Shown: positions 14,991 to 27,077 of the stretch, in pieces
Layout of the letters: every line of letters begins with the position of its first letter
How positions within the stretch are numbered: the first letter of the stretch is position 1
Sequence record: PX880099.1
DNA: 64,000 bases
Reading direction: 5' to 3' (one strand)
Source of the DNA: a phage
The notes under the pieces: model-generated
What the model was told of the DNA's origin: nothing
Seen by the model: the letters and a program-made list of their open reading frames with translations, nothing else
The model's database searches: none
Program-made: the position numbers and the translations under genes

Positions 14991-15233
14991 TATTTTAACT
15001 TTTTTCATTTTTAGAACAAAGGTGTCACTTTGTAGCACAGAAATAAGGCTCCTACAGCACCGTAGAGAGCCTGTTATTTTGTCCTATACAAACCCTTGTC
15101 TTTTTCAGTTTGCATCACTAGGATTCGATCTGAGTGGGTTCCTGAAGGTTTACCAATAAGATTAAAGGTTATATCAAATTCCCACTATCTTTTATCTCAA
15201 AAATCCCTCAAATTATTTAAACTTTTTAAGAAT

Positions 15234-15418: not shown

Positions 15419-15433
15419 TTTATGCAGGTGAAA

Positions 15434-15548
15434 ATGAGAAGAGTTCTCATATGGAAATGCAAATGATAATGATTCGCATTTAAGTTTATAAATGAGATTG
15501 ATTCTTATTTAATAAGGTAAATGACAATCATTCTCATTTAGAGAATGA
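15434..15548. promoter_or_regulatory. cluster of palindromic hairpin or operator-like sites built on ATGAGAA/TTCTCAT and AATGAnAAT..ATTCTCAT (Fur-box-like)
   Basis: ATGAGAA-GAG-TTCTCAT (15434-15450), AAATGC-N15-GCATTT (15455-15481), TCATTCTC-ATTTA-GAGAATGA (15528-15548). Confidence 0.45.
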
Positions 15549-15761
15549 CGCGCAGGGGCGGTGTTTGTCTCGCGCTCCCGTGTCCACTCGCCATGTAATA
15601 AGAATAACAGATCCAGCCAGGAAAGCAAGCGATTATTTTATCTTTACATTTCTTTACAAATATATAGCACCCAGCCTACCGGCGATCAACCTTCCAACCA
15701 GTGCCCCCTGGTATGTTAGCCCCGCCTTTACGCCGTGGGGTGGCGCTTCCTCTTCTGTATG
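15541..15761 (-). ncRNA. candidate structured non-coding transcript from a GC-rich island
   Basis: Strong minus-strand promoter at 15768-15796, then about 220 nt of GC-rich sequence with several short stems and no ORF of 60 aa or more on that strand. Confidence 0.25.
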
Positions 15762-15767
15762 TAAAAC

Positions 15768-15796
15768 AGTATAAGCCCGATCCCTGGGCTTGTCAA
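15768..15796 (-). promoter_or_regulatory. sigma70-type promoter on minus strand (TTGACA-17-TATACT)
   Basis: Reverse complement reads TTGACAAGCCCAGGGATCGGGCTTATACT. Confidence 0.5.
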
Positions 15797-15798
15797 GA

Positions 15799-16065
15799 TT
15801 ATTTTTTGTTTTCTTGCCAGGATAGGACACCTAACCAAAAATACATATCGCCCCGCGCCCCTGGTGGTATCTTGCTTTCCCCGCCGCCACTGCAAGCCCA
15901 TAGATAACCATTTGCGAACGTATCAAAATGATCTATCTCTTCCACCTTATGATCGCCCAGGTTGAGAACGGTTTCAACCTTTAAGCCCGTTGCGCTTGCT
16001 ACCTGGTGCACCGTGCCGCCTTGCCAGCCCAATGAGTGCATAAGGTGTAATGTAGTATTTGTCAT
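15799..16065 (-). CDS. hypothetical protein (GC-rich, compositionally atypical)
   Basis: 88 aa ORF with upstream minus-strand TTGCTA-17-TATTAT promoter and a GCGCC..GGCGC hairpin in the leader. Confidence 0.35.
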   Translation of the reverse strand: MTNTTLHLMHSLGWQGGTVHQVASATGLKVETVLNLGDHKVEEIDHFDTFANGYLWACSGGGESKIPPGARGDMYFWLGVLSWQENKK

Positions 16066-16173
16066 GATATCGCCCTTTCTTTGTTGTGCGCCCTGGTTGG
16101 CGCGGTAGAAAGATAATAGCCCTTTTCTTTATATATAGCAAGCAAAAAGAAAATAAAAAAGATTGAAAAATGG

Positions 16174-16230
16174 TTGACGTTAACCAGGCGGCGGCGTAGT
16201 ATTCATCTTGTAGGGCGGCAATGGTGCCGC
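16174..16230 (+). promoter_or_regulatory. PeSL-like cassette 1: early promoter plus GC hairpin
   Basis: TTGACG-N17-TAGTAT, then GCGGCA-ATGG-TGCCGC. Confidence 0.6.
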
Positions 16231-16251
16231 TCACTATTTGGAGTTAAGATC

Positions 16252-16449
16252 ATGGCAACATTGCACATTGTGGCGAAAGCTGGACAAATCAACGTAGTGG
16301 TAAACGGTTTTACTGAGTTCAGTCACCCCCAGGATGATCATGAAACGGTTTTATCTTTCATTGATTCCCTGTTAGAAATGGGAGTCATTACAGAAGACCA
16401 GCACGCTACAAAATGCAAGCGCGTTAATCAAATTGTAGGAATAGAATAA
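16252..16449 (+). CDS. small early protein
   Basis: 65 aa; start at ATG (MATLHIV); track extension is read-through of the hairpin. Confidence 0.5.
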   Translation: MATLHIVAKAGQINVVVNGFTEFSHPQDDHETVLSFIDSLLEMGVITEDQHATKCKRVNQIVGIE

Positions 16450-16455
16450 AAAGTA

Positions 16456-16515
16456 TTGACAACAAACAACAACCTGATAAGATGTATCACATAGGGCGGC
16501 GGAATGGTCCACCGC
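16456..16515 (+). promoter_or_regulatory. PeSL-like cassette 2
   Basis: TTGACA-16-TAAGAT, hairpin GCGGCGG-AATGGT-CCACCGC, conserved leader CACAACAGAAGAGAGATTATCA. Confidence 0.65.
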
Positions 16516-16540
16516 TCACAACAGAAGAGAGATTATCATC

Positions 16541-16813
16541 ATGGCATCATATAGCGCAACAATGATCGTAGCTGGCACCACTGGTAAACCTATGCGCGGT
16601 GGCGGATCTTTCGCTAATATCAATATTGACGGGCGTTTATCCCTGGACGCAGCGATCACCGTGGCGCGGGAAACATTTAAGAAAGAATGTAAATTCAATA
16701 AACAAGATTATCTCGGTTTTGCTATTGAAAAAACCGCGCGCTTTGTTGATTATAAAAGCCCGAAAATGGTTGACACTACATTAAAAGCGCAAGATGTAGC
16801 GTTTTTGCTTTAA
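16541..16813 (+). CDS. small early protein
   Basis: 90 aa ORF behind PeSL leader. Confidence 0.55.
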   Translation: MASYSATMIVAGTTGKPMRGGGSFANINIDGRLSLDAAITVARETFKKECKFNKQDYLGFAIEKTARFVDYKSPKMVDTTLKAQDVAFLL

Positions 16814-16816
16814 GGC

Positions 16817-16871
16817 TTGACATTAACGAATAATTTGTTAATATGTTACATAAAGCGGGAATAGTTCCCGC
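16817..16871 (+). promoter_or_regulatory. PeSL-like cassette 3
   Basis: TTGACA-16-TAATAT, hairpin GCGGGAA-TAG-TTCCCGC. Confidence 0.65.
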
Positions 16872-16889
16872 TATTTGTAAGGTGGTAGA

Positions 16890-17147
16890 ATGTTTTACAT
16901 CAAATTAAAAGGTCACGTGATCGCGTTCAAAGATAACGCTTTTTACAGATTAGCAAAATATGCGTTAATACATCCCCACTATGTTTATATAAGGGGGCGT
17001 GATGAAATAAATATCTTTGATCAAACAACATGCGAGAACATCGAGATCCGCAAGGTTGGCGTACGTGATTATCGTACATCTTTCTACCCTTGCAAGGATT
17101 CAGCAAGTCTTTTTAAAGTATGCCAATTGTTGAAAAAAGGTGGTTAA
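16890..17147 (+). CDS. small early protein
   Basis: 85 aa ORF. Confidence 0.5.
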   Translation: MFYIKLKGHVIAFKDNAFYRLAKYALIHPHYVYIRGRDEINIFDQTTCENIEIRKVGVRDYRTSFYPCKDSASLFKVCQLLKKGG

Positions 17148-17148
17148 T

Positions 17149-17706
17149 ATGGGCCGCGAATATGTGATCCAGTCTTGGGTAAAACATGAAGCAGATGATC
17201 CGCGCATCATTCCCGATCATCTTATCGATGAATCCACGGGATATAGTGGTGAGCAAATAGGTAACAGATTAGCACGTAGTAACGGCAACGTAAAAGCGCG
17301 TTATGTGCGCCCTGGCTGGCTGGCAAATGGTAACGCTGATTTATCCAGTGCGGAAGATGCGAGCGACGGCGCGAAAGATAATCCTTTGTACAAAGTTGAT
17401 CCAGCTTTTCGTGTCCTGGATGAATACCCCAGCAAGATAGCGGCGCTCGATCAGGCCCTGGAAAGTAAGCGCATCACCTGGACCGCTTACAACATGGCAA
17501 AAAACGTACTTGATGGTAAATTGATTCAAGCTGAAAGAAAATTAGCCAAAATTGCAGCCATAGCCCAGGAGGAAGACGAGGAGACAACGGAAGAGGAAGA
17601 GTACGAAGAGATCCCGCCGTTGTTGTGTGTTGATGCTTTTCCTGATTATCAGCCGACAGAGGAAGAAAAAAGGATCGCACTAGAAAACTTTGAAAATAGT
17701 CTTTGA
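17149..17706 (+). CDS. hypothetical protein with acidic C-terminal tail
   Basis: 185 aa; ATG after AAAGGTGG. Confidence 0.5.
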   Translation: MGREYVIQSWVKHEADDPRIIPDHLIDESTGYSGEQIGNRLARSNGNVKARYVRPGWLANGNADLSSAEDASDGAKDNPLYKVDPAFRVLDEYPSKIAALDQALESKRITWTAYNMAKNVLDGKLIQAERKLAKIAAIAQEEDEETTEEEEYEEIPPLLCVDAFPDYQPTEEEKRIALENFENSL

Positions 17707-17760
17707 CATATCGCCGCCACTGGCATAATATTTACCACGTAGGGCGGCAATGGTGCCGCT
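17704..17760 (+). promoter_or_regulatory. PeSL-like cassette 4
   Basis: TTGACA-17-TAATAT, hairpin GCGGCA-ATGG-TGCCGC. Confidence 0.65.
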
Positions 17761-17788
17761 CATAGTGAAATTATGCAAGAGGCTTACA

Positions 17789-17884
17789 ATGATTAATAAA
17801 GAAAATAGCTTGACGGTTGGAACGATTAACGCTATCATTCTAGCCGTTCCATTTTGGGTTGTAGTAGCGGCTATTATTTTCTAA
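17789..17884 (+). CDS. hydrophobic micro-protein (31 aa)
   Basis: Hand-translated MINKENSLTVGTINAIILAVPFWVVVAAIIF between two PeSLs. Confidence 0.3.
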   Translation: MINKENSLTVGTINAIILAVPFWVVVAAIIF

Positions 17885-17892
17885 AAATATTC

Positions 17893-17953
17893 TTGACAAC
17901 GTTTTTTAATCTGATAAGATGTATCACGTAGGGCGGCGGAATACTTCCCCGCC
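17893..17953 (+). promoter_or_regulatory. PeSL-like cassette 5
   Basis: TTGACA-16-TAAGAT, hairpin GGCGG(C)GGAA-TAC-TTCCCCGCC. Confidence 0.65.
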
Positions 17954-17974
17954 AAAACAAAAAAGGGTAACACA

Positions 17975-18337
17975 ATGAGCAAGCAAATCAATACTATCAT
18001 GTTTAATCTGGTATCTTTCCGCGATGATATGAAAAATTTACCACGTGAAACGGTTGATATTCATGTTTCAGCTTATCGCGCCCTTATTGACATGTTACCG
18101 CTAAAACGTGATCAACATGCCGCTAATATGATGCTTAATGCTATGCTTAAAAAGATGATTCAAACGGATCTTACTCTGGCGTATGAGTATCAAGGGCGCT
18201 TATATGCGACTTACAACAAAGCGGTACCTGGTCTGGGAAGTACCGAAGAGTTGCACGGCTTAAACCTGGATCAAAACACTTGGGATAGTATGCGCCGCGT
18301 TATGGTATGGGCCGAAAGCGGTAAAATTTACGAATAA
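17975..18337 (+). CDS. small early protein
   Basis: 120 aa ORF. Confidence 0.55.
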   Translation: MSKQINTIMFNLVSFRDDMKNLPRETVDIHVSAYRALIDMLPLKRDQHAANMMLNAMLKKMIQTDLTLAYEYQGRLYATYNKAVPGLGSTEELHGLNLDQNTWDSMRRVMVWAESGKIYE

Positions 18338-18343
18338 AAACGG

Positions 18344-18400
18344 TTGACACTGTTTAAACTTCTGGTATAGTTTATCACGTAGGGCGGCAATGGTGCCGCC
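18344..18400 (+). promoter_or_regulatory. PeSL-like cassette 6
   Basis: TTGACA-16-TATAGT, hairpin GGCGGCA-ATGG-TGCCGCC. Confidence 0.65.
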
Positions 18401-18420
18401 AACAATAAAAGGTTAACATC

Positions 18421-18600
18421 ATGGCTATCATTGCAAAAACTGAGATTATAGGTTTAGATTCGATCCTCCTGGCTTATGAGGAAACTTTAAAAATGTATGT
18501 AGTGACCTATGGTGATTATGTGCGTGAATACGAATACATTGATCTTGCTTTCGAATGTTACATTCGCCAGGTCAATAAAGCCTATAATGATTATCGTTAA
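18421..18600 (+). CDS. small early protein (59 aa)
   Basis: Hand-translated MAIIAKTEIIGLDS...; conserved ATGGCTATC start. Confidence 0.45.
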   Translation: MAIIAKTEIIGLDSILLAYEETLKMYVVTYGDYVREYEYIDLAFECYIRQVNKAYNDYR

Positions 18601-18619
18601 AAGTTTTAGTCTTATACTA

Positions 18620-18671
18620 TTGACAATGAGTGATAGTATAAGCATAATAACTTTTATCGGGAATACTTCCC
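18620..18671 (+). promoter_or_regulatory. PeSL-like cassette 7 (shortened hairpin)
   Basis: TTGACA-17-CATAAT, hairpin GGGAA-TAC-TTCCC. Confidence 0.5.
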
Positions 18672-18697
18672 ACTAACCAAAAAGAGAGAGTGACACC

Positions 18698-19063
18698 ATG
18701 GCTATTAATATCAATGTTTCCGCTTATGCTACCCTGGCTAACACGGCTAAAATTGAATTATCCAGCATTGAGGCGGTGCATATTAGCGCCCGTCGCTGGT
18801 TTCAACAGTCCTACGGTAACACATATTTTTCTTTAATGGTTGACGTTGAGATCGGCGGTAAACTGATCGAGGTGGTTAACGTTCCGTTTCAATATGGCTA
18901 TGGTGATCATTTTGATACCGTCGCCCTGGAAGAATTTAGCAAGGTTATCAACCTTGAGGGCAAGGAATTTTCACGCGGCGCGTATCTTTCCCGTTTTTGC
19001 CGTGACAATGGGATCACTGTATACAGTCATGCAAGCGATGTAAAACGTAAAAAAGATTTATAA
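18698..19063 (+). CDS. small early protein
   Basis: 121 aa ORF, MAIN start. Confidence 0.55.
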   Translation: MAININVSAYATLANTAKIELSSIEAVHISARRWFQQSYGNTYFSLMVDVEIGGKLIEVVNVPFQYGYGDHFDTVALEEFSKVINLEGKEFSRGAYLSRFCRDNGITVYSHASDVKRKKDL

Positions 19064-19069
19064 AAAGCA

Positions 19070-19128
19070 TTGACAGCACGAATAAAAAGAGTAAACTGTA
19101 TTACATAGAGAGCGGGAATAGTTCCCGC
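19070..19128 (+). promoter_or_regulatory. PeSL-like cassette 8
   Basis: TTGACA-16-TAAACT, hairpin GCGGGAA-TAG-TTCCCGC. Confidence 0.65.
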
Positions 19129-19152
19129 CTCATTCAAAGAGAGATTATCATC

Positions 19153-19392
19153 ATGGCTATTACTAAAACTTACAACGGTCACAAAAACAAAACTCACTGG
19201 AATGTAAGCCTTTGGATTAATAACGACGAATCATTATATCGGTTGGCGAAAGAATTTATCGCCGCTAATACTAATCGTAATGATGCTGCCCGTGATATGA
19301 TGTTATTCCTGGAACAAACTGGACAAGATAAAACTCCAGACGGTTTCAAGTATAGCACTACAGCGATCCGCGCCGCGATGGTTGGAATGTAA
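19153..19392 (+). CDS. small early protein
   Basis: 79 aa ORF, MAIT start. Confidence 0.55.
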   Translation: MAITKTYNGHKNKTHWNVSLWINNDESLYRLAKEFIAANTNRNDAARDMMLFLEQTGQDKTPDGFKYSTTAIRAAMVGM

Positions 19393-19401
19393 TAAAAACA
19401 G

Positions 19402-19461
19402 TTGACAACGTTTAAAATTAGTGTAAGATGTATCACATAGGGCGGGAAGTGGTTTCCCGCC
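19402..19461 (+). promoter_or_regulatory. PeSL-like cassette 9
   Basis: TTGACA-16-TAAGAT, hairpin GGCGGGAA-GTGGT-TTCCCGCC. Confidence 0.65.
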
Positions 19462-19483
19462 AACAACAGAGAGATTAAAGATT

Positions 19484-19711
19484 ATGGCTATCAATATTGT
19501 TCGCGTATCCGGCACCGTTGGCACTTCCCAGGTTATTGCAGTTGTAACAAACAAAAAGATTAATGATGTATGTGAGATCTTGAATAAGTGGGCTATTGCT
19601 AATTTTGGGGAATATGCAAGCGTCGAGTACATCGAATCCTACCAGGTGCCAACCATCAGCCTGACCGATCTCAACGTTGATCGCCTGTTATGCCTGGATG
19701 AATTAATCTGA
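19484..19711 (+). CDS. small early protein
   Basis: 75 aa ORF, MAIN start. Confidence 0.55.
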   Translation: MAINIVRVSGTVGTSQVIAVVTNKKINDVCEILNKWAIANFGEYASVEYIESYQVPTISLTDLNVDRLLCLDELI

Positions 19712-19720
19712 AAAAGATTG

Positions 19721-19776
19721 TTGACACGGGAAAGAAAAAGAGTAAACTGTATTACGTAGGGCGGCAATAGTGCCGC
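19721..19776 (+). promoter_or_regulatory. PeSL-like cassette 10
   Basis: TTGACA-16-TAAACT, hairpin GCGGCA-ATAG-TGCCGC. Confidence 0.65.
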
Positions 19777-19801
19777 TCACAACAGAAGAGAGATTATCAC
19801 G

Positions 19802-20014
19802 ATGGCTAATATCCGCACACTGTTAAAAAATGCAAGTCAAGTTTTATTTTCTGATCACGATCATTTTAATAAAGATATTACAGGCGTGAAGAATATCAAA
19901 GATGTAAAAAGTGTTATGGGTATATATTGCAATGTTAAACGTGTTGGAACGTTCGGTGATAAAGTATTGTACCAATCAGGTGATTACAATTTTACTTTGA
20001 CGATTATTTCATAA
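19802..20014 (+). CDS. small early protein
   Basis: 70 aa ORF. Confidence 0.55.
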   Translation: MANIRTLLKNASQVLFSDHDHFNKDITGVKNIKDVKSVMGIYCNVKRVGTFGDKVLYQSGDYNFTLTIIS

Positions 20015-20019
20015 AACGC

Positions 20020-20081
20020 TTGCAATACTGCAAAAATAAAGTAAACTGTATTACATCAAGGCGGCGGAATGGTCCACCGCC
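20020..20081 (+). promoter_or_regulatory. PeSL-like cassette 11
   Basis: TTGCAA-16-TAAACT, hairpin GGCGGCGGA-ATGG-TCCACCGCC. Confidence 0.6.
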
Positions 20082-20105
20082 TAACAAAGAGAAGAGGAAA
20101 ATATT

Positions 20106-20273
20106 ATGATCACTTTCGCTACCCGTGAAGCCGCTCGCAACGTTGCACGTAAAGTTAACGCCGCCAACCTGGGCGCTACGCTTAAAGCCCCTGTAAAAGA
20201 TGAATCAGGAAAATGGATCTTCCCTGGTCTACGTCATGCTGACAAGTTAGGTACTTTAAGCCTTAAAAAATAA
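20106..20273 (+). CDS. small early protein (55 aa)
   Basis: Hand-translated MITFATREAARNVARKVNAANLG...; shares its first 16 nt with the gene at 20526. Confidence 0.45.
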   Translation: MITFATREAARNVARKVNAANLGATLKAPVKDESGKWIFPGLRHADKLGTLSLKK

Positions 20274-20276
20274 TCG

Positions 20277-20313
20277 TTGACTTTTCGTTATAGCGCCTTA
20301 TAATGGGCGCTAT
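20277..20313 (+). promoter_or_regulatory. promoter with palindrome overlapping the -10 (operator-like)
   Basis: TTGACT-16-TATAAT; inverted repeat ATAGCGCC-N8-GGCGCTAT spans the -10. Confidence 0.45.
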
Positions 20314-20350
20314 AGAGAAGAGAAACCAGTCACAACAGAGAGAAAATATC

Positions 20351-20512
20351 ATGACCAATAAAGAAAAAGCCATCATTAAAGCACATTATCCACATCTAAC
20401 ATTACGTTTTAAAGCCGATGGATCTGTTATGGCCTCCAGTGGGCGCGGGTATGCTTACGGTTTACTTTACACCGCACAACAAGCGCAAGATCATTTAAAC
20501 GCAGTAAAATAA
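20351..20512 (+). CDS. small early protein (53 aa)
   Basis: ATG (MTNKEKAII) after AGAGAGA; track start is upstream read-through. Confidence 0.45.
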   Translation: MTNKEKAIIKAHYPHLTLRFKADGSVMASSGRGYAYGLLYTAQQAQDHLNAVK

Positions 20513-20525
20513 CAAGGAAACCATT

Positions 20526-20747
20526 ATGATCACTTTCGCTATTGTCGCCGTTGTTGCTGGTCAAGTTTACGTAAATGAGACATTTACTACAGAAGACAAG
20601 GCAGCAGGAGATATAACCGCCGTTTACAATGAGTGCAAGGCAGTAGAAAGGATGTTAGCGCCTTGTATGCTAATGAGTGAACGCCAGGACGGAATAACAG
20701 TATTTACTAACATTGGAACAGGGTACCAAATGGTAGTAACAAAATAA
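20526..20747 (+). CDS. small early protein
   Basis: 73 aa ORF, hydrophobic N-terminus MITFAIVAVVAG. Confidence 0.5.
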   Translation: MITFAIVAVVAGQVYVNETFTTEDKAAGDITAVYNECKAVERMLAPCMLMSERQDGITVFTNIGTGYQMVVTK

Positions 20748-20750
20748 AGC

Positions 20751-20807
20751 TTGACACCGATTTAATTTTTAGTAAACTGTTACAGGTAGGGCGGGAATAG
20801 TTCCCGC
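20751..20807 (+). promoter_or_regulatory. PeSL-like cassette 13
   Basis: TTGACA-16-TAAACT, hairpin GCGGGAA-TAG-TTCCCGC. Confidence 0.65.
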
Positions 20808-20826
20808 TCAAAAAGAGAGAAAGACC

Positions 20827-21180
20827 ATGAAAGCACAAAATGCAATTAAAGAGTACATCCTTGCCGCTATCGATTTTAATGATTACGGTATTACAACCGA
20901 AAAAGAGAAGATCGCGGAATTGATGCGCCGTTTTAATTCCGAGTACTGGTACCCTGATAACCAATCACGTTTTAATTATAGTATTGTTAAAGCACTTGCA
21001 TCATGGTTACAAGGTTTGCCATCAGATATCAATATCGCTTTCGAATATTGGGAAATTGATCGCTTGTTAACATCCTGGGGATACATTAAAGAGAATAGCA
21101 GCGATGATAAAATCCAACGAGAAAGGGAAAATTATTGGCTTTATATTGCAGGCGTGATCCTTGCTTGCTCTTATGAATGA
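20827..21180 (+). CDS. small early protein
   Basis: 117 aa ORF. Confidence 0.55.
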   Translation: MKAQNAIKEYILAAIDFNDYGITTEKEKIAELMRRFNSEYWYPDNQSRFNYSIVKALASWLQGLPSDINIAFEYWEIDRLLTSWGYIKENSSDDKIQRERENYWLYIAGVILACSYE

Positions 21181-21186
21181 TAAACC

Positions 21187-21240
21187 TTGACAATTTTACA
21201 AAACAGTTTAAATTAACAATATAGCGGCAATGGTGCCGCT
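21187..21240 (+). promoter_or_regulatory. PeSL-like cassette 14
   Basis: TTGACA-16-TAAATT, hairpin AGCGGCA-ATGG-TGCCGCT. Confidence 0.6.
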
Positions 21241-21259
21241 CATATGAAGAGGAAACAAA

Positions 21260-21406
21260 ATGAATACATCTAATCGCGCAGAAAAAATTCAATCTTCCAA
21301 GATCCGCAAAGCCTGGAACGAGGAAGTGATCCGCAAAGGCGACAAGCGTAATAAAACAAAGCGCGGGAAGAGTGACAAATATAATTGGATGGATTTAGAG
21401 GATTAA
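21260..21406 (+). CDS. small basic protein (48 aa)
   Basis: Hand-translated MNTSNRAEKIQSSKIRKAWN... Confidence 0.4.
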   Translation: MNTSNRAEKIQSSKIRKAWNEEVIRKGDKRNKTKRGKSDKYNWMDLED

Positions 21407-21414
21407 CATAACAA

Positions 21415-21440
21415 GGGCGCATCAAGCGCCCTTTCTTTTT
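21415..21440 (+). terminator. rho-independent terminator
   Basis: GGGCGC-ATCAA-GCGCCC followed by TTTCTTTTT. Confidence 0.65.
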
Positions 21441-21461
21441 ACATGTAGAGGATAAACAAAA

Positions 21462-21647
21462 ATGACTTTAAACGAGCTTAAAACAGCCTACAACGCAACA
21501 TTAAAAATAGCCGTGCGTTACCGTGATGCGTATGGTTTTATCGCGCAGGGCGTGATCCTGGGCTTTTCTGACGATGGTTTGATCTATGTTGATGCACATC
21601 ACAACAAGGTTAAACCTGAAAACGTCATTAGCATAAAATATCTTTAA
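21462..21647 (+). CDS. small early protein
   Basis: 61 aa ORF. Confidence 0.5.
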   Translation: MTLNELKTAYNATLKIAVRYRDAYGFIAQGVILGFSDDGLIYVDAHHNKVKPENVISIKYL

Positions 21648-21653
21648 AAACGG

Positions 21654-21709
21654 TTGACAGCATAACCAAGTATGATAAGATGTATCACATAGGGCGGGAA
21701 TAGTTCCCG
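21654..21709 (+). promoter_or_regulatory. PeSL-like cassette 15
   Basis: TTGACA-16-TAAGAT, hairpin CGGGAA-TAG-TTCCCG. Confidence 0.6.
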
Positions 21710-21732
21710 ACCACATAAAAGAGAAAAACATT

Positions 21733-21945
21733 ATGACCACTATCACAACAAAACAAGAAAAAATTATTACAGACATTGCCGCAGTAGCCGCTATTGCTAT
21801 TATTGGTACCTACTATGACACCGCGCGACCTTCCTCCTTACATGAGATCGCCGCCGTTGCATCAGTTGGCGTACTGTTTTACGTTGGTAAACGCTATTTA
21901 TCACCAATGATTAACAAGCTGACACCGTGGAAAAATAAAGGTTGA
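21733..21945 (+). CDS. small membrane protein
   Basis: 70 aa, hydrophobic core IAAVAAIAIIGTYY...VGVLFYVG. Confidence 0.5.
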   Translation: MTTITTKQEKIITDIAAVAAIAIIGTYYDTARPSSLHEIAAVASVGVLFYVGKRYLSPMINKLTPWKNKG

Positions 21946-21996
21946 TCCTGTTTTATATTGTGTTATAGTTATCGTGTAGGGCGGCAATGGTGCCGC
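21942..21996 (+). promoter_or_regulatory. PeSL-like cassette 16
   Basis: TTGATC-16-TATAGT, hairpin GCGGCA-ATGG-TGCCGC. Confidence 0.6.
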
Positions 21997-22016
21997 GCCC
22001 CTTTGAGGATGCAATC

Positions 22017-22301
22017 ATGCGTAAAGCTAACACCGTGCTAATGTTTTCCCTGATTAATAATGCCGCTTACTTGTCCAACATGACGCAGGAGGGTAACACA
22101 TTAACGGCAACATTCACCAATAAGCTTGACCGAGTGATCATAATCTCACTGAAAACAGTTAGTAAAGGCTTTTACTCGTTAGCTTATCATTGTATCACTG
22201 ACACCGACGAGACAAGCCAGGACTATAGCGCCCCTTTCCCTGAATCAATGGCACGGGAGATCATCGCCGCCGTTGTAAATGATGGTTTGTTTACTGCATA
22301 A
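22017..22301 (+). CDS. small early protein
   Basis: Start at ATG (MRKANTV); track extension is hairpin read-through. Confidence 0.5.
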   Translation: MRKANTVLMFSLINNAAYLSNMTQEGNTLTATFTNKLDRVIIISLKTVSKGFYSLAYHCITDTDETSQDYSAPFPESMAREIIAAVVNDGLFTA

Positions 22302-22318
22302 AATAATTCAGAAAAGGC

Positions 22319-22375
22319 TTGCAATAATTTTCAGACCGTGTATATTTAATTCATAGGGCGGCGGGAATAGTTTCC
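22319..22375 (+). promoter_or_regulatory. PeSL-like cassette 17 (degenerate hairpin)
   Basis: TTGCAA-16-TATATT, weak GGAA..TTCC stem. Confidence 0.4.
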
Positions 22376-22398
22376 TAAGCAAACGAGAGGATTACACG

Positions 22399-22518
22399 AT
22401 GAGCAAGTATACAGTAGAATACACGGTAGAAAATCCGGCAGTATCCGAAGGTAAAAAGATGACATTTGCCATCAGTATAATCGCTTTCGTTATCACTATC
22501 TTATCAATCATCTTATAA
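22399..22518 (+). CDS. hydrophobic micro-protein (39 aa)
   Basis: Hand-translated MSKYTVEYTVENPAVSEGKKMTFAISIIAFVITILSIIL. Confidence 0.35.
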   Translation: MSKYTVEYTVENPAVSEGKKMTFAISIIAFVITILSIIL

Positions 22519-22528
22519 GGTGCGTACT

Positions 22529-22690
22529 ATGAAAACAACAGACATTATCAAAGAGATCGCCCTTGCCGCTGACGTTGAGATCGAGGAAGTGATCGCGCTC
22601 AACCTTACAGAAAACGATCTGCGCAACTATGAAGCGGAAAGCGTGAAAGCAAGCGGCGCGGTCCTGGCATATAATCCGGCTAACAAGTAA
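22529..22690 (+). CDS. small protein (53 aa)
   Basis: Hand-translated MKTTDIIKEIALAADVEIEEV... Confidence 0.4.
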   Translation: MKTTDIIKEIALAADVEIEEVIALNLTENDLRNYEAESVKASGAVLAYNPANK

Positions 22691-22699
22691 GGGGATAAC

Positions 22700-22810
22700 A
22701 TGAATCCAAAAGATATGCAAGCATGGAAAGGGTACGACGATCTAAGCGCCTTGCGCAATAAGTCAAGCCGTAACCTTAGACGGTTGGAAGCAAAGAAAAA
22801 GAAAAAATAG
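22700..22810 (+). CDS. small basic protein (36 aa)
   Basis: Hand-translated MNPKDMQAWKGYDDLSALRNK...KKKKK. Confidence 0.3.
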   Translation: MNPKDMQAWKGYDDLSALRNKSSRNLRRLEAKKKKK

Positions 22811-22811
22811 T

Positions 22812-22867
22812 TTGACAAGTCCGCCTAGTCTGATAATATGTATCTTGTAGGGCGGCAATGGTGCCGC
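22812..22867 (+). promoter_or_regulatory. PeSL-like cassette 18
   Basis: TTGACA-16-TAATAT, hairpin GCGGCA-ATGG-TGCCGC. Confidence 0.65.
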
Positions 22868-22888
22868 TCACAAGAAGAGAGAAAAATC

Positions 22889-23173
22889 ATGAAAATCACA
22901 AAAAGCCTAACTAATTATGCAGCACGTCGCGGATTATGTTTAACCGTTGAAAACTTAGGGAAAGAAGACTTTTTGTGTTTTTGGGAGCTTGAAAATGATT
23001 GCGAGTGGATGTTTTCTTATTCTATCTGCGAAGATCAAAACGGTTGTTTGTTAACCTGGCGCGGTAATATCTATTTACCGGAAGAAATTAAAGAAGAGTT
23101 ACCAGGTACGATCATGACAGAGAGACAGCTTAAGGAAGTGATCAATTTTGTAGGGCAAAACATTAAAAAATAA
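22889..23173 (+). CDS. small early protein
   Basis: Start at ATG (MKITKSL). Confidence 0.5.
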   Translation: MKITKSLTNYAARRGLCLTVENLGKEDFLCFWELENDCEWMFSYSICEDQNGCLLTWRGNIYLPEEIKEELPGTIMTERQLKEVINFVGQNIKK

Positions 23174-23174
23174 T

Positions 23175-23235
23175 TTGACAGTAGGCAAACAACGTAGTAA
23201 AGTTTATTACATAGAGCGGCGGAATGGTCCACCGC
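23175..23235 (+). promoter_or_regulatory. PeSL-like cassette 19
   Basis: TTGACA-17-TAAAGT, hairpin GCGGCGG-AATGGT-CCACCGC. Confidence 0.6.
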
Positions 23236-23258
23236 TCACAACAGAAGAGAAACAAATC

Positions 23259-23429
23259 ATGATCCCGACTATGTTTTATGTATCGCGCAAAGGTCACAAT
23301 ATTTTTTGGTCTGAAGATTTAAATGAAGCTATGACGTTTGCCCGTGATCGTGTTGCTATCGGTGGCGTTAATATCACCGTGACCGATGAAAACGGCATTG
23401 AATACTATAACGGCGATGATGAAGAGTAA
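23259..23429 (+). CDS. small early protein (56 aa)
   Basis: Start at ATG (MIPTMFYV). Confidence 0.45.
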   Translation: MIPTMFYVSRKGHNIFWSEDLNEAMTFARDRVAIGGVNITVTDENGIEYYNGDDEE

Positions 23430-23473
23430 TCAACAAGGCGGGATTAATTCCGCCTATATTAAAGGGTAATACA

Positions 23474-23611
23474 ATGAAAACTTTCAACGCAACAGCCTCG
23501 ACAATTGGTTATATTATTACAGTGCAAGCCGTGGATCTGGTAGCAGCAGCAAACAAGATTAAAAAGATGATCCCGCCAGGTAGTGAATTTTCCGTTTGGG
23601 AAGTAAAATAA
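23474..23611 (+). CDS. small protein (45 aa)
   Basis: Hand-translated MKTFNATASTIGYIITVQAV... Confidence 0.35.
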   Translation: MKTFNATASTIGYIITVQAVDLVAAANKIKKMIPPGSEFSVWEVK

Positions 23612-23614
23612 ACC

Positions 23615-23676
23615 TTGACAATAATTTGTTATCTGGTAAAGTGTATTACGTAGGGCGGGGCAATGGTGCAACGCCC
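23615..23676 (+). promoter_or_regulatory. PeSL-like cassette 20 (variant hairpin)
   Basis: TTGACA-16-TAAAGT, hairpin GGGCG-N13-CGCCC. Confidence 0.5.
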
Positions 23677-23694
23677 ATTAATGAGGGTAGAATC

Positions 23695-23799
23695 ATGTTA
23701 GAGAAAATTTTCACGGTTGTAATAGTGGGCCTGGCGTTATCGGTTGGAGTGGTTGCAACTATGGCTAACATGATCCTATCTTCCCACGGTATCGGTTAA
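23695..23799 (+). CDS. hydrophobic micro-protein (34 aa)
   Basis: MLEKIFTVVIVGLALSVGVVATMANMILSSHGIG. Confidence 0.35.
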   Translation: MLEKIFTVVIVGLALSVGVVATMANMILSSHGIG

Positions 23800-23809
23800 G
23801 GTGAAACAA

Positions 23810-23971
23810 ATGATCACGAACAAAACAGGCAAAACGGAATTTTTACGCGGCTTACAAGTTGGTAAGCCTGAGATCTGGCATTGCACGAAGTCCGCGCATA
23901 ATGAAATGAAAGATTTCACCGCTACTTTACAACGTGTTAAAATATCTATTACGCAGAAAAAGCCTTATTAG
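23810..23971 (+). CDS. small protein (53 aa)
   Basis: Hand-translated MITNKTGKTEFLRGLQVGKP..., SD AAGGTGA. Confidence 0.4.
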   Translation: MITNKTGKTEFLRGLQVGKPEIWHCTKSAHNEMKDFTATLQRVKISITQKKPY

Positions 23972-24020
23972 TAGTAGAAAACGAGATCCCGCAAACCATT
24001 ATTATTGTCGAGCGTACAGC

Positions 24021-24407
24021 ATGAAAACAGAAATCATTAACGAAATCATCAACGGCTATAAAGAAGCCTTTATTTTTGCTGAATCAGCAAGGGATCATGA
24101 AGGTAATTTTATAGATGACATGACTGATTATGATTTTTCAGATCAAGCCCATCAACGGATCGCCCAGGATGTAACAGCCTTTATTAATGCTAATCTTGCC
24201 GCTATCTCTGAGGCAATGAGCGACGGCGCAACAGCCAACCAGATCGGGAATGATTTACATTTTACCCGTAACGGTCACGGCGTAGGATTTTGGGATCGCC
24301 CTGAAATATACACCACTAACACGGCGAACCGCCTAACAAATGCAGCTAAGTTTATGCCGAACGTGTCGGCTTACATTGGTGAAGATAATTTGATTTATAT
24401 TGAATAA
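24021..24407 (+). CDS. hypothetical protein
   Basis: 128 aa from ATG (MKTEIINEI); weak RBS. Confidence 0.45.
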   Translation: MKTEIINEIINGYKEAFIFAESARDHEGNFIDDMTDYDFSDQAHQRIAQDVTAFINANLAAISEAMSDGATANQIGNDLHFTRNGHGVGFWDRPEIYTTNTANRLTNAAKFMPNVSAYIGEDNLIYIE

Positions 24408-24413
24408 AAAGTA

Positions 24414-24470
24414 TTGACACAGATCGCCAGTGTGCTAATATTTACCACGTAGGGCGGCAATGGTGCCGCC
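24414..24470 (+). promoter_or_regulatory. PeSL-like cassette 21
   Basis: TTGACA-16-TAATAT, hairpin GGCGGCA-ATGG-TGCCGCC. Confidence 0.65.
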
Positions 24471-24488
24471 GATAATGAGGAAAATAAA

Positions 24489-24788
24489 ATGGAAACTATC
24501 GCTATTGTTACCGTAGAAAAACTGGTTGTTGGTGATGTGTTCGCGTTAATGGTGCCTAACAGCAGCAAACTGGGCGCTTATGAAGTGATGGACCATAAAA
24601 ATGAATCATTTGGCGACGGTTGCACAATGGCGGTAAAATCCTTAAAGGATGGAATCATCCGCCAGGCTAACTGGCACAAAGGGAATCAAGTCGGTTTAAT
24701 ATCAGCTAATTTCTTGCCAGAAGAGCAAACGTTAGACCAACTATCAGGCGGTAAGACGTTAGCCGAACTACTGGAAACAGCGATCTAA
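24489..24788 (+). CDS. small early protein
   Basis: 99 aa ORF. Confidence 0.55.
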   Translation: METIAIVTVEKLVVGDVFALMVPNSSKLGAYEVMDHKNESFGDGCTMAVKSLKDGIIRQANWHKGNQVGLISANFLPEEQTLDQLSGGKTLAELLETAI

Positions 24789-24796
24789 TCAACAAA

Positions 24797-24812
24797 GGGG
24801 CGGCAACGCCCC
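24797..24812 (+). other. GNRA-loop hairpin (GGGGCG-GCAA-CGCCCC), intergenic
   Basis: Same design as 25079-25094; no T-tract, so RNA stability or processing element rather than a classical terminator. Confidence 0.45.
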
Positions 24813-24832
24813 ACATCAGAAAGGAAAAGATT

Positions 24833-25069
24833 ATGAGTATTGCAACAGTATTAAACGCCGTTAAAACCGCTGAATCATCCGGCTTGCATGTTGAGCTTAT
24901 AGATCAACCAGGTGGCGATCTCCTTGTCCAGGTTTACCCGCCGAAAGTAGGGGATGATTATTATTGGGCTTATTCTGATACGTTCGAACAAGTAGACACG
25001 AAAGCGATCACGGCTTTTATTTTAAAAGCTATTGAAGAAAATAACTTTCATCATAACATCAATCAATAA
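24833..25069 (+). CDS. small early protein
   Basis: 78 aa ORF, SD AAAGGAAAAG. Confidence 0.55.
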   Translation: MSIATVLNAVKTAESSGLHVELIDQPGGDLLVQVYPPKVGDDYYWAYSDTFEQVDTKAITAFILKAIEENNFHHNINQ

Positions 25070-25078
25070 ACCATAAGC

Positions 25079-25094
25079 GGGGCGGTAACGCCCC
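25079..25094 (+). other. GNRA-loop hairpin (GGGGCG-GTAA-CGCCCC), intergenic
   Basis: Paralogous to 24797-24812. Confidence 0.45.
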
Positions 25095-25123
25095 ATTAAA
25101 CGCAATAGGAAGAGGATAGACGC

Positions 25124-25414
25124 ATGAAAAACATGATCGCAGTAGTTGCCCTAGTTGTTGGTATTAACGCGCCTGTACTGGCTAATGAGTTGTCAGAATC
25201 CATCACGCTAACCGATATCAACGCAATAAACCGGATCGGCGTTAATTATCGCCTATGCCTTGCCGCTAAAACTTTCCAGGACGGCACGACAGAATACCAC
25301 GGATTCGAGGGTATCCGCTGCGGTGAGCTTGCACGCGACCTTAAAGAAGATCCAGACCTTGAGGCCATACCGATGACCGTAAACGGTAAAGCTTACGTAA
25401 ACCGCCAACAATGA
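25124..25414 (+). CDS. secreted small protein (signal peptide)
   Basis: MKNMIAVVALVVGINAPVLA signal-like N-terminus. Confidence 0.55.
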   Translation: MKNMIAVVALVVGINAPVLANELSESITLTDINAINRIGVNYRLCLAAKTFQDGTTEYHGFEGIRCGELARDLKEDPDLEAIPMTVNGKAYVNRQQ

Positions 25415-25545
25415 GAAAGGTAATCATCACAATGGGGATCGTAGTAGCAACGCTGGCGCTTATCCCCTTCATGGTTGAACATGTGCTGATCAGTGTTGTC
25501 CTTGTAGTCAGTGACCTATTGGAAACGGTTGGCACCTGGTTTTAA
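25411..25545 (+). CDS. hydrophobic micro-protein (44 aa)
   Basis: Hand-translated MRKVIITMGIVVATLALIPFMVEHVLISVVLVV..., ATGA-coupled. Confidence 0.35.
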   Translation: MRKVIITMGIVVATLALIPFMVEHVLISVVLVVSDLLETVGTWF

Positions 25546-25719
25546 GATAATAAATAGGGCTTGCAATAGTCCTATTTTTTGTTATACTTATTGAACGGGC
25601 GGCACCTGGGAGCAGGTGAAGATAATCACCGGAAGATCCCGCTATATATCGATAGCTAATACCTATCAAACAACAAAACATCAAAGAGATAAACTATCAA
25701 ATCTTTACAATCCTACCTA

Positions 25720-25778
25720 TTGACACCGGATCACGCTTACATTATTATTTATCACGTAGGGCGGGAATGTTTCCCGCC
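25720..25778 (+). promoter_or_regulatory. PeSL-like cassette 22
   Basis: TTGACA-16/17-TATTAT, perfect hairpin GGCGGGAA-TGT-TTCCCGCC. Confidence 0.65.
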
Positions 25779-25796
25779 TGATTTAGGAGTCATATC

Positions 25797-26030
25797 ATGA
25801 TCGAACAAATTAAAAGCACTAAACCAAATGTTAACGGTAATGTTTCTCACTTTATCGGGGATAATGAAAGAGGTACACCGTACGCCGCCGTAACCGTTCA
25901 ACCGAACGGGGATTATTGGTTTACCGTGTACGGATCTTACTCTTTTGGACGTTCGGCACATGATAAGATCTTGCAAGTGGTTAAGCCTACTGGGAAGAAT
26001 ATCACAGCAGAAAAATTTTATAAAAAATAG
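25797..26030 (+). CDS. small early protein
   Basis: 77 aa ORF, SD AGGAG. Confidence 0.55.
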   Translation: MIEQIKSTKPNVNGNVSHFIGDNERGTPYAAVTVQPNGDYWFTVYGSYSFGRSAHDKILQVVKPTGKNITAEKFYKK

Positions 26031-26031
26031 C

Positions 26032-26089
26032 TTGCTTTATATACCCTGTTAACTTATAGTTATTGCGTAGGGCGAGCAATACAGCAAGC
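26032..26089 (+). promoter_or_regulatory. degenerate PeSL-like promoter
   Basis: TTGCTT-17-TATAGT; flanking inverted repeat GCTTGCT...AGCAAGC. Confidence 0.35.
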
Positions 26090-26108
26090 CCACAAAGAGG
26101 AAAATAAA

Positions 26109-26477
26109 ATGAGCAAATCAGCAATTAAAGCACTTGAAAAAGCACAAGAAGTGATCGCAACGTCAACCACTGGCGCAAAGGTTAATCTCGTTTGTTATCT
26201 GACAGATGAAACTATCCGTAAAAATTGGCGTAATGCTGATTTACTGGCTTGCTTATTGATTAATAGTGTCGCTAATGCTTTCCAGTGTGAAACAGCCGAG
26301 AGCCTGGAGGAAAACTTGTTTGATAATATGGATCAAGCCATTGAAACCTATATACAATCAAACCTGGATAGCTGGAACAGTAAAACATGGCCCGACAATT
26401 TACGCGATACAACTGATCAACTGATCCGCCTTGCCCTGATGGTTGAACGCGATAACGTTTACAACAGCACAAAGTAA
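26109..26477 (+). CDS. small early protein
   Basis: 122 aa ORF, SD AAGAGGAAAA. Confidence 0.55.
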   Translation: MSKSAIKALEKAQEVIATSTTGAKVNLVCYLTDETIRKNWRNADLLACLLINSVANAFQCETAESLEENLFDNMDQAIETYIQSNLDSWNSKTWPDNLRDTTDQLIRLALMVERDNVYNSTK

Positions 26478-26487
26478 GATTATACAA

Positions 26488-26507
26488 GGGCGCACTAAGC
26501 GCCCTTT
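26488..26507 (+). terminator. terminator-like hairpin
   Basis: GGGCGC-ACTAA-GCGCCC followed by TTT. Confidence 0.5.
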
Positions 26508-26542
26508 AACGTAAAGAAATGTAAATAATGCGCTATCCCCTA

Positions 26543-26571
26543 TTGACAGGGGATCGGCGTTATATTATATT
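26543..26571 (+). promoter_or_regulatory. sigma70-type promoter with palindrome over the -35
   Basis: TTGACA-17-TATATT; ATCCCCT-ATTGAC-AGGGGAT inverted repeat. Confidence 0.45.
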
Positions 26572-26616
26572 TAACTTACTGGCAGCAAACAACGAAACGA
26601 AACAAAGGACAACATC

Positions 26617-27036
26617 ATGAACATTAAATCAAATAATCCAGCTTACTCCTTCGATAACGCTTTTTGTCACGGTAGCGCCGCCAAAGGCTTCGAAATCGAT
26701 GGTAAATTGGTTATCGTGAACGTTGACGGGGAAGAGGTTGCAGTGTATCCGGTAAACGATGTTAAAAGCCGTTTACAATGCCGCATGGATGTTACCGCAT
26801 ATCAGCTTGATCCGGTCCGTGTAGTTGCCTTGGTGTTAGAGGAAGAGATCAAAGCAATGCATCACAGTAATAAGTTTATTGGTGACGCGCAGGATAATAT
26901 GAACGTTTGCCGCCATAAAGTTAATGAAGCATTGAAAGAATGCGGTTTTAAGGATCTGATGATTAAACGTGATGAAAAATTCCGCTTTCGTAATGACCTG
27001 GCAAACCGGATCTACTCAATCTATGAAGCGTTATAA
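26617..27036 (+). CDS. hypothetical protein
   Basis: 139 aa ORF, SD AAAGGACAA. Confidence 0.55.
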   Translation: MNIKSNNPAYSFDNAFCHGSAAKGFEIDGKLVIVNVDGEEVAVYPVNDVKSRLQCRMDVTAYQLDPVRVVALVLEEEIKAMHHSNKFIGDAQDNMNVCRHKVNEALKECGFKDLMIKRDEKFRFRNDLANRIYSIYEAL

Positions 27037-27051
27037 TTGACAACAAAACAA

Positions 27052-27077
27052 GGGCGCACCAAGCGCCCTTTCTTTTT
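27052..27077 (+). terminator. rho-independent terminator
   Basis: GGGCGC-ACCAA-GCGCCC followed by TTTCTTTTT; closes the PeSL gene cluster. Confidence 0.65.

Follow-up and report, generated by a model that had tools for sequence, protein, structure and literature searches.

Promoter-early stem-loops (PeSLs) are known from the T4-type phages RB49/phi1, PST/T4 and nt-1/KVP40 (Arbiol et al. 2010, PMC2839356; Comeau et al. 2014, PMC4122927). In the five published subclasses, the stem-loop lies upstream of, within or just past the promoter and always before the start, and it has been demonstrated to act as a terminator or attenuator that lowers downstream expression (PMC2839356, PMC4122927). An earlier note on a 64,000-nucleotide (nt) stretch of phage DNA (sequence record PX880099.1; hereafter "the window", at its full length) had proposed a PeSL-like array of 23 promoter and stem-loop cassettes before small genes at 16174-26090. 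We find 25 promoter cassettes on the + strand, most of which carry a GC-rich hairpin just past the predicted transcription start. It is probable, in our view, that this early region is built of cassettes of approximately 85 bp in which the transcribed 5' hairpin serves as an mRNA stabiliser and insulator, with recombination between the repeats as a by-product.

The array shares several features with PeSLs: a composite of approximately 100 bp in which a promoter and a stable stem-loop are coupled (upstream stop codon and AT-rich tract, near-consensus sigma70 promoter, G-then-C stem-loop, Shine-Dalgarno (SD) sequence and start codon); a position before small unrelated ORFans in a plastic region (25 structural differences versus 10 congeneric genomes); chimeric cassettes at indels between close relatives; and, in four + strand copies and one - strand site, a hairpin inside the promoter. 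In contrast to PeSLs, the host genome belongs, judged by its matches, to Phapecoctavirus (Stephanstirmvirinae) and is not T4-like, 21 of the 25 stem-loops lie past the predicted start and would be transcribed as the mRNA 5' end, and the cassettes are denser (one per approximately 410 bp, versus eight in approximately 5 kb in RB49). The published terminator role would fit poorly as well, since these 21 stem-loops have no T-run. Because most copies depart from the PeSL position and the lineage differs, we regard the array as PeSL-like in evolutionary behaviour and not as a member of the class. Of the label given earlier, the composite build and the recombination footprint are retained, while the T4-type lineage and, in 21 of 25 copies, the stem-loop position are not. 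The PeSL idea, i.e., repeated regulatory cassettes that express ORFans and also provide the recombination sites for shuffling them, would extend beyond T4-type phages; the solution seen in the array differs, as its hairpin would have been shifted into the transcript.

5'-terminal stem-loops stabilise E. coli mRNAs, e.g., that of the ompA leader, which was reportedly described as an mRNA stabiliser by Emory, Bouvet and Belasco in 1992; both RppH and the 5' sensor of RNase E require unpaired 5' nucleotides. The array resembles such natural stabilisers (the ompA 5' untranslated region) and engineered 5' hairpin stabilisers or insulators in having a short stable hairpin near the predicted 5' end, an accessible ribosome site and structure conserved over sequence. 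However, those are single-gene leaders or synthetic parts, whereas here one hairpin family sits on approximately 21 tandem promoters with predicted 5' ends. The host-takeover or early modules of large virulent phages, such as the SPO1 terminal-redundancy module and the T4 hyperplastic regions, likewise lie near a genome end and are dense in very small genes whose function is unknown, all or nearly all of them with a strong host-type early promoter and a good ribosome site; we know of no description in them of one conserved transcribed hairpin at a fixed promoter distance. A looser likeness exists to lambda nut (boxA-boxB) and HK022 put, small RNA hairpins near the 5' ends of early transcripts, in that CGCTCACAACA after some array hairpins resembles boxA. 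We set nut and put elements aside, given approximately 21 copies versus two, loops that are not of the boxB type, a CGCTC that is part of the stem, and no identified N-like protein.

Promoters and cassette architecture

The region 16100-26100 shares 98.8% identity with Escherichia phage vB_EcoM-Ro121lw and matches 277 phage records, chiefly of Phapecoctavirus and Justusliebigvirus (Stephanstirmvirinae), with shorter matches to Vequintavirus (rV5/FV3) and jumbo phages; in the relatives, all genes under the match are annotated "hypothetical". From these similarities, the window is a phAPEC8-like myovirus infecting E. coli and not of the T4 type (Tevenvirinae-like). The motif TTGACA-N15-18-TAnnnT occurs at 31 sites in the window, where 5.05 are expected and none of 100 shuffles reaches 31, with 17 of these sites on the + strand, from 16456 to 26543. 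A second, independent promoter consensus scan gave the same sites, with spacers of 16-17 nt and the -10 boxes TAAGAT, TAAACT, TAATAT, TAAAGT and TATAGT. The promoters are near-consensus and sigma70-type, 18 of them with a perfect TTGACA box; 24 lie on the + strand at 16174-26090 and one more at 26543, giving 25 in 16174-26617, so that the array reported earlier is real and its count of 23 too low. In full, the array (16174..27070, + strand) comprises 35 small ATG-initiated open reading frames (ORFs) and the 25 cassettes, and ends in a strong terminator. Given host-type promoters and no evident phage RNA polymerase (the annotation of the closest genome lists no such gene in 36-122 kb, and the largest ORF of the window has 530 aa), the cassettes are presumably early units and the array an early gene region dependent on host RNA polymerase.

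Each cassette runs from a stop codon and A-rich tract through the sigma70 promoter and the hairpin to a leader with a ribosome site and the ATG. In 21 of the 25, the GC-rich family hairpin begins 9-12 nt past the last base of the -10 box. Counted up to the first paired base, 21 of 22 cassettes have 9-12 nt after the -10 box, with 22812 scored at 7 nt solely because the fold lengthens its stem. The hairpins have stems of 7-10 bp and folding energies of about -9 to -15 kcal/mol (21 family cassettes). A further 16-27 nt separate them from the ATG; the leader is unstructured and rich in A, C and G, and its GAG-type ribosome site is unpaired in the folds. Transcription is predicted to start 7-8 nt past the -10 box, at the purine of CAC-R-TAG, which would put the hairpin at about +3 to +5; lying 9-12 nt past the -10, the hairpin should therefore be transcribed.

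Under a strict scan, all 17 promoter-like sites of the array carry a hairpin of this 9-12-nt type, compared to none elsewhere on the + strand of the window and 0-3 each on the other strands and in the rest of the genome, which bears out the earlier description of a module of TTGACA, -10 box and GC hairpin before small ORFs. The sequence TAGGGCGG is present in 15 copies in the window, all on the + strand and all within the array. A leader shared by many copies, also claimed before, was overstated: the full 22-nt CACAACAGAAGAGAGATTATCA occurs in cassettes 2 and 10 only, with partial matches in three (a 14-nt version) or four (CACAACAG) copies.

Conservation of the hairpin structure

Sequence-only MAFFT alignments of the hairpins shift the 3' arms by one column, and RNAalifold then found four pairs. 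We discarded these alignments in favour of a covariance model (R1) made from 14 hand-picked, hand-annotated hairpins, plus promoter-anchored folding. Searched over a 150.5-kb genome equivalent (the window, completed with the other 86 kb from the closest relative), R1 hits the array and one further site only (MH160766.1, at approximately 116.0 kb), with + strand scores well above those of the - strand at the same loci.

Pairing statistics were derived from 150 hits at ten loci (84 distinct rows), in an alignment that is fitted to the model and consists of related sequences. Paired cells amount to 93.9%, versus 88.6% in shuffles, none of 500 of which reaches the observed value; when partners are slid as a control, pairing falls to 40-73%. 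Two-sided change is found in four of nine pairs (e.g., G-C 68 and C-G 15; A-U 71, G-C 8 and G-U 4). It is the loop-proximal pairs that swap, from C-G to G-C and from A-U to G-C, while the GCGG/CCGC core never varies. The structure rather than the sequence is thus conserved, with the caveat that the core is invariant within the genus. The compensatory variants quoted in the earlier note are present, and the covariance model it called for recovers the hairpin, although the compensation is limited to pairs outside the core. The + rows contain 38 G.U cells versus 13 A.C cells, and promoter-anchored folding of 79 distinct hairpins favours the sense strand in 41 cases and the antisense strand in 20. 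We give more weight than to this strand bias to the variable spacing of the outer half-sites and to the different stems in other lineages, both described below.

Cassettes and gene content in related phages

A structural comparison of the window with ten Phapecoctavirus genomes yielded 25 distinct differences, i.e., 50 breakpoints. Of these, 21 fall within cassettes, which make up 22.7% of the region (p = 0.002), 19 in other intergenic spots and 10 inside coding sequences, which account for 70% of the region. Since the ends of high-scoring segment pairs are biased toward conserved cassettes, we consider chimeric cassettes decisive over this enrichment. ESCO25 carries the promoter of cassette 19070 in front of the hairpin and leader of 20020, each part with 100% identity, and lacks three genes; the crossover lies within the shared GTAAACTGTATTACAT. 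A first chimera in nieznany joins 19721 to 20020, again with 100% identity on both sides and with one gene gone, and a second combines the promoter of 22812 (83% identical) and the leader of 24414 (100%), having lost 1.5 kb. Whole units are deleted at 18428-18694 (between cassettes 18344 and 18620) and 25763-26054 (cassettes 25720 and 26032), and another deletion, 24816-25079, runs between two promoter-less hairpins. In three relatives (L005, L006 and L008), the orthologue of cassette 16456 differs in the hairpin alone, with promoter and gene unchanged, which points to gene conversion. The slot behind cassette 20277 exists in three states among the relatives: a 53-aa gene, an unrelated 72-aa gene, or empty. 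These comparisons support the view that relatives have gained and lost genes by recombination between cassettes; gene gain and loss bounded by cassettes had been set beforehand as the test of the cassette idea, and the three chimeras, two of them 100% identical on both sides, lie precisely at junctions of gene units.

The same geometry in other phage lineages

Different stems stand 10-14 nt past the -10 box in phi92-like phages (Justusliebigvirus), FV3 (Vequintavirus) and the jumbo Asteriusvirus CRJP21, e.g., GGCGGTGG/CCACCGCC, GGGGCAA/TTGCCCC, GGGCC/GGCCC and GGGGAGAA/TTCTCCCC. CRJP21 (L019) has at least 18 analogous cassettes at 2115-18400, within its first 19 kb. Each consists of TTGCAA or TTGACA, 16 nt, TATAAT, approximately 12 nt, a GC hairpin (e.g., the last of the stems above), an SD sequence and an ATG, often as ATGGCTA; we found no published description of them. 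Loop features recur as well, with four lineages sharing a closing AA...TT and the loops TAG, ATGG and TGG. A distance to the -10 box that stays fixed across lineages, with different sequence in between, fits a requirement tied to the 5' end.

For rV5-, phAPEC8-, phi92-, PVP-SE1-, PBECO4- and RaK2-like phages and PA5oct, we found no mention of a coupled 5' hairpin in the literature that could be searched, which is incomplete; promoters and terminators are listed or tallied there, and the supplementary promoter table for rV5 ends 7 nt past the -10 box. The searchable literature also yielded no transcriptome for Phapecoctavirus and the related groups. Outside the T4-type phages, cassettes of this kind are now seen in three or more groups of large coliphages, phage-therapy candidates included, and in at least four lineages. 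A bolder reading of this distribution, which we rate as unlikely, would be that promoter, 5' hairpin and leader form a horizontally exchanged early-expression cassette common to large enterobacterial myoviruses of several lineages that are not related to each other (Stephanstirmvirinae, Vequintavirinae and jumbo Asteriusvirus), with the hairpin being not a generic stabiliser but a specific 5' tag for a host or phage factor that, e.g., exempts early mRNAs from phage-induced decay or switches them off jointly.

Possible function of the hairpin

In the mechanism that we favour, the hairpin would become the 5' end of the mRNA and stabilise it by shielding it from RppH and RNase E where their attack depends on the 5' end. 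It would also insulate structurally, leaving the ribosome site accessible in the transcript of its own cassette as well as in read-through or processed RNAs that originate in upstream cassettes. Acting as stabiliser and insulator, it would thereby allow each tiny gene to be expressed at once, strongly and irrespective of context. A by-product would be that the 25 direct repeats offer substrates for homologous recombination or gene conversion, by which whole gene units could be deleted, inserted or swapped and the cassettes homogenised. The approximately 21 natural variants with compensatory stems would make a test set for the effects of 5' hairpins on mRNA stability and translation during infection, and the cassettes could serve synthetic biology as compact natural promoter-insulator-ribosome-binding-site parts.

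Several points weigh against stabilisation and insulation. We infer both the 5'-terminal position of the hairpin and its stabilising effect, and a start at the 8th nt past the -10 box is predicted to leave 2-4 nt unpaired, at the edge of the presumed 5' protection. In RB49, G-then-C hairpins without a U-tract lowered downstream lacZ (PMC2839356), and the array hairpins may have some attenuator activity too. The GCGG/CCGC core is invariant within Phapecoctavirus, which may reflect recent common ancestry or gene conversion instead of structural selection; with a core that never varies, independent compensatory events are few. A recurrent C.A mismatch, seen in three window cassettes and some relatives, favours the antisense fold at those sites, and together with the non-independence of the data it makes the evidence from strand bias modest. 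Finally, the breakpoint enrichment is the weaker part of the recombination evidence, as segment ends favour conserved cassettes by construction.

If the hairpin instead had the true PeSL function, it would terminate or attenuate transcription from the upstream cassette, leaving each gene to its own promoter alone. An RB49 PeSL stem-loop of G-run, loop and C-run cut lacZ expression as strongly as rrnB T1 (PMC2839356), and four + strand cassettes and one - strand site of our locus do have the hairpin inside the promoter, with a T-run at 25552-25577. However, 21 hairpins lie past their own predicted start and would equally terminate their own transcript, and the class-I (9-12 nt) hairpins have neither a T-run nor a terminator call, whereas separate canonical terminators are present at 21413 and 27050. 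This function is therefore quite improbable for the array as a whole. A recognition tag on early mRNAs, bound by a phage or host factor that times their shut-off (by cleavage or translational repression) or spares them from decay, would account for the invariance of TAGGGCGG and the GCGG/CCGC core in Phapecoctavirus, for the AA...TT closing and the loops recurring in four lineages, and for the tightly fixed distance between promoter and hairpin. Against it stand the many other loops (TAC, TGT, CAC, AAC, CGG, AAAA and ACGTC), the stems lacking GCGG in FV3, CRJP21 and some Phapecoctavirus copies, and PHROG and Pfam searches of the array genes that returned no candidate RNA-binding protein. Gene conversion between the repeats, exemplified by the hairpin swap at 16456, also explains the invariance. 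We think a tag unlikely.

Two explanations dispense with the RNA. An inverted repeat at +3 to +25, directly past the start, occupies the classical position of an operator, and symmetric changes would preserve a palindrome as well as a stem; the element might then bind a dimeric repressor of the early promoters, or extrude as a cruciform. Yet the outer GGCGG/CCGCC halves are separated by 18-23 nt, the stems have bulges and the loops measure 3-6 nt, and this variable spacing is incompatible with a fixed dimeric DNA site and fits a folded single strand. The excess of G.U over A.C, the better folding of the sense strand and the promoter-less copies between genes also argue against a DNA-level element, which we consider very unlikely. 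Just as hard to credit is the idea that the repeats have no RNA function and are scars of recombination or duplication, with palindromes as hot spots of replication slippage. The chimeric cassettes and the hairpin-to-hairpin deletion (24816-25079) would be expected from such scars, but pairing is kept through two-sided changes, the same geometry is built from different sequences in four lineages, and the position relative to the -10 box and the ATG is constrained.

Four further candidates were rejected. RNase III sites would need longer stems than those present. Hairpin promoters of the N4 type do not match a locus in which a sigma70 promoter stands before each hairpin and the closest genome has no RNA polymerase gene annotated in 36-122 kb. 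Integron attC sites were dismissed as no integrase is annotated and every cassette has its own promoter. The class-I hairpins were also rejected as intrinsic (Rho-independent) terminators, since no U-tract directly follows the GC hairpin.

Individual cassettes and other elements of the array

All cassettes lie on the + strand and are given with the -35 box, spacer length and -10 box. Cassette 1 (16174..16251, TTGACG-17-TAGTAT) has the 5' hairpin 16213-16232, GGGCGGCA/ATGG/TGCCGCTC. Cassette 2 (16456..16540, TTGACA-16-TAAGAT; hairpin 16494-16517) has a C.A mismatch in the stem and the full 22-nt leader, and cassette 3 (16817..16889, TTGACA-16-TAATAT) the hairpin 16854-16872, AGCGGGAA/TAG/TTCCCGCT. 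They are followed by cassette 4 (17703..17788, TTGACA-17-TAATAT; hairpin 17742-17761), cassette 5 (17893..17974, TTGACA-16-TAAGAT; hairpin 17932-17953, with a bulged C) and cassette 6 (18344..18420, TTGACA-16-TATAGT; hairpin 18383-18400), whose downstream gene unit is missing in five relatives. Cassette 8 (19070..19152, TTGACA-16-TAAACT; hairpin 19108-19131) is the left parent of the ESCO25 chimera. Cassette 9 (19402..19483, TTGACA-16-TAAGAT) carries the hairpin 19441-19461, GGCGGGAA/GTGGT/TTCCCGCC. Cassette 10 (19721..19801, TTGACA-16-TAAACT; hairpin 19759-19778), with the full 22-nt leader, is a left parent in nieznany, and cassette 11 (20020..20105, TTGCAA-16-TAAACT; hairpin 20059-20082) is the right parent of two chimeras. 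Next come cassettes 13 (20751..20826, TTGACA-16-TAAACT; hairpin 20789-20809), 14 (21187..21259, TTGACA-16-TAAATT; hairpin 21223-21240), 15 (21654..21732, TTGACA-16-TAAGAT; hairpin 21693-21712) and 16 (21942..22016, TTGATC-16-TATAGT; hairpin 21979-21998).

The hairpin of cassette 17 (22319..22398, TTGCAA-16-TATATT), at 22358-22380, is decayed (-5.5 kcal/mol) and contains a G.U pair. Cassettes 18 (22812..22888, TTGACA-16-TAATAT; hairpin 22846-22872) and 21 (24414..24488, TTGACA-16-TAATAT; hairpin 24453-24470) are the left and right parents of the 1.5-kb deletion chimera in nieznany. Between them lie cassette 19 (23175..23258, TTGACA-17-TAAAGT; hairpin 23214-23237) and cassette 20 (23615..23694, TTGACA-16-TAAAGT), whose hairpin 23653-23676 consists of two helices with an internal loop. 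Cassette 23 (25720..25796, TTGACA-17-TATTAT; hairpin 25759-25779) is the top covariance-model hit of the window, with 41.8 bits, and cassette 24 (26032..26108, TTGCTT-17-TATAGT) has a divergent hairpin at 26070-26091.

The variants with a hairpin inside the promoter are found around 18611, 20285, 25552 and 26530. In cassette 7 (18611..18697), an AU-rich stem at 18611-18642 surrounds the -35 box (TTGACA at 18620), followed by the -10 box CATAAT and a weak 5' hairpin at 18659-18671. Cassette 12 (20277..20350, TTGACT-16-TATAAT) has the RB49-PeSL geometry, with the -10 box in the loop of the hairpin 20285-20318 and no 5' hairpin. In cassette 22 (25552..25719, TTGCAA-16-TATACT), the terminator-like hairpin 25552-25577 encloses the -35 box (TTGCAA at 25561), with the -10 box at 25583-25588, and in cassette 25 (26530..26616) the hairpin 26530-26560 encloses the -35 box (TTGACA at 26543), with the -10 box TATATT and again no 5' hairpin. 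A - strand promoter adjoining the array (15768..15796, TTGACA-17-TATACT) has a GC hairpin in its spacer, as in the published PeSL geometry. The one R1 hit away from the array is a cassette on the - strand (L004, 30025-30090) with TTGACA-16-TAAGAT and the hairpin GCGGGGAA/TAG/TTCCCCGC; it precedes an "integral membrane protein" gene and is the sole family copy outside the array in MH160766.1.

Convincing intrinsic terminators on the + strand are limited to 21413, 25552 and 27050. The one within the array (21413..21440) is AAGGGCGC/ATCAA/GCGCCCTT followed by TCTTTTT, and the next gene after it, 21462, has no promoter of its own; the one closing the array (27050..27077) has the same arms around ACCAA, again followed by TCTTTTT. 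All intergenic gaps of the array of at least 44 nt but one contain a GC hairpin, and four of these gaps are promoter-less. Promoter-less hairpins on the + strand are present at 23436..23455 (AGGCGGGA/TTAA/TTCCGCCT, without a T-run), 24797..24812 (GGGGCG/GCAA/CGCCCC) and 25079..25094 (GGGGCG/GTAA/CGCCCC), the last two forming the junctions of the gene-unit deletion in two relatives (L012 and L015). The exceptional, hairpin-less gap (49 nt) follows ORF 23810-23971, which covers only positions 1-52 of the 72-position phrog_5988 and looks truncated.

Cassette 22 continues into approximately 125 nt without an ORF, with a structured, conserved leader of approximately 50 nt from 25597 (GGGCGGCACCTGG...). 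The 5' part of the 25552-25720 leader is kept in Phapecoctavirus, Justusliebigvirus and the Vequintavirus FV3, making it a candidate early small RNA. The fold of 25594-25722 is barely better than those of shuffles (z = -1.67), five sequences showed no covariation in it, and no Rfam 15 covariance model matched 15500-28600 at E <= 1.

Genes behind the cassettes and genome context

The 30 array proteins compared with PHROGs all belong to different families, and all but one are of "unknown function", the exception being labelled only "membrane protein"; for the 10 largest, Pfam gave no match. As described before, genes share their first codons: ATGGCTAT opens four consecutive genes (18421, 18698, 19153 and 19484) and ATGGCTAAT the next one (19802). 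Genes 20106 and 20526 indeed have the same first 16 nt, ATGATCACTTTCGCTA, and fall into different PHROGs, in agreement with their being unrelated.

In the ORFs directly after the cassettes, residue 1 coincides with the beginning of the PHROG profiles, which supports those start codons. Several automatic ORF calls and some annotations in relatives begin inside the cassette, in a hairpin or promoter (21987, 20303, 23596 and 16174 in the window), with the call at 21987 being the ATG in the AATGGT hairpin loop and that at 20303 the ATG in TATAATGGG. By agreement with position 1 of the profiles, the true starts are the ATGs 16-27 nt past the hairpin, which provides an annotation rule for the start codons of very small early genes. 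The 79-aa gene at 19153 (phrog_871; window 19070-19392) is 77-88% identical at the DNA level to sequences in jumbo Asteriusvirus phages and in the T7-like phage PGT2, with homologous stretches at 2115-2433 in L017 and L019 and at 1483-1722 in L018. The jumbo-phage match extends into the cassette, and that of PGT2 covers the gene alone; such similarity indicates recent horizontal transfer between unrelated phage groups.

By homology to phi92, the record of which ends in an annotated direct terminal repeat, the physical end of the genome would fall in a 1.5-kb non-coding region, with the array as the final transcription unit of the + strand ahead of it. The corresponding stretch of the window, 27071-28560, is AT-rich and contains no convincing ORF, and the genome end should lie near 28.1-28.5 kb, so that the window would span joined genome ends. 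The records matching the region include 19 named "Campylobacter phage" and one named "Acinetobacter phage", those listed having approximately 95-96% identity; these host labels look doubtful, perhaps as a result of contaminating coliphages.

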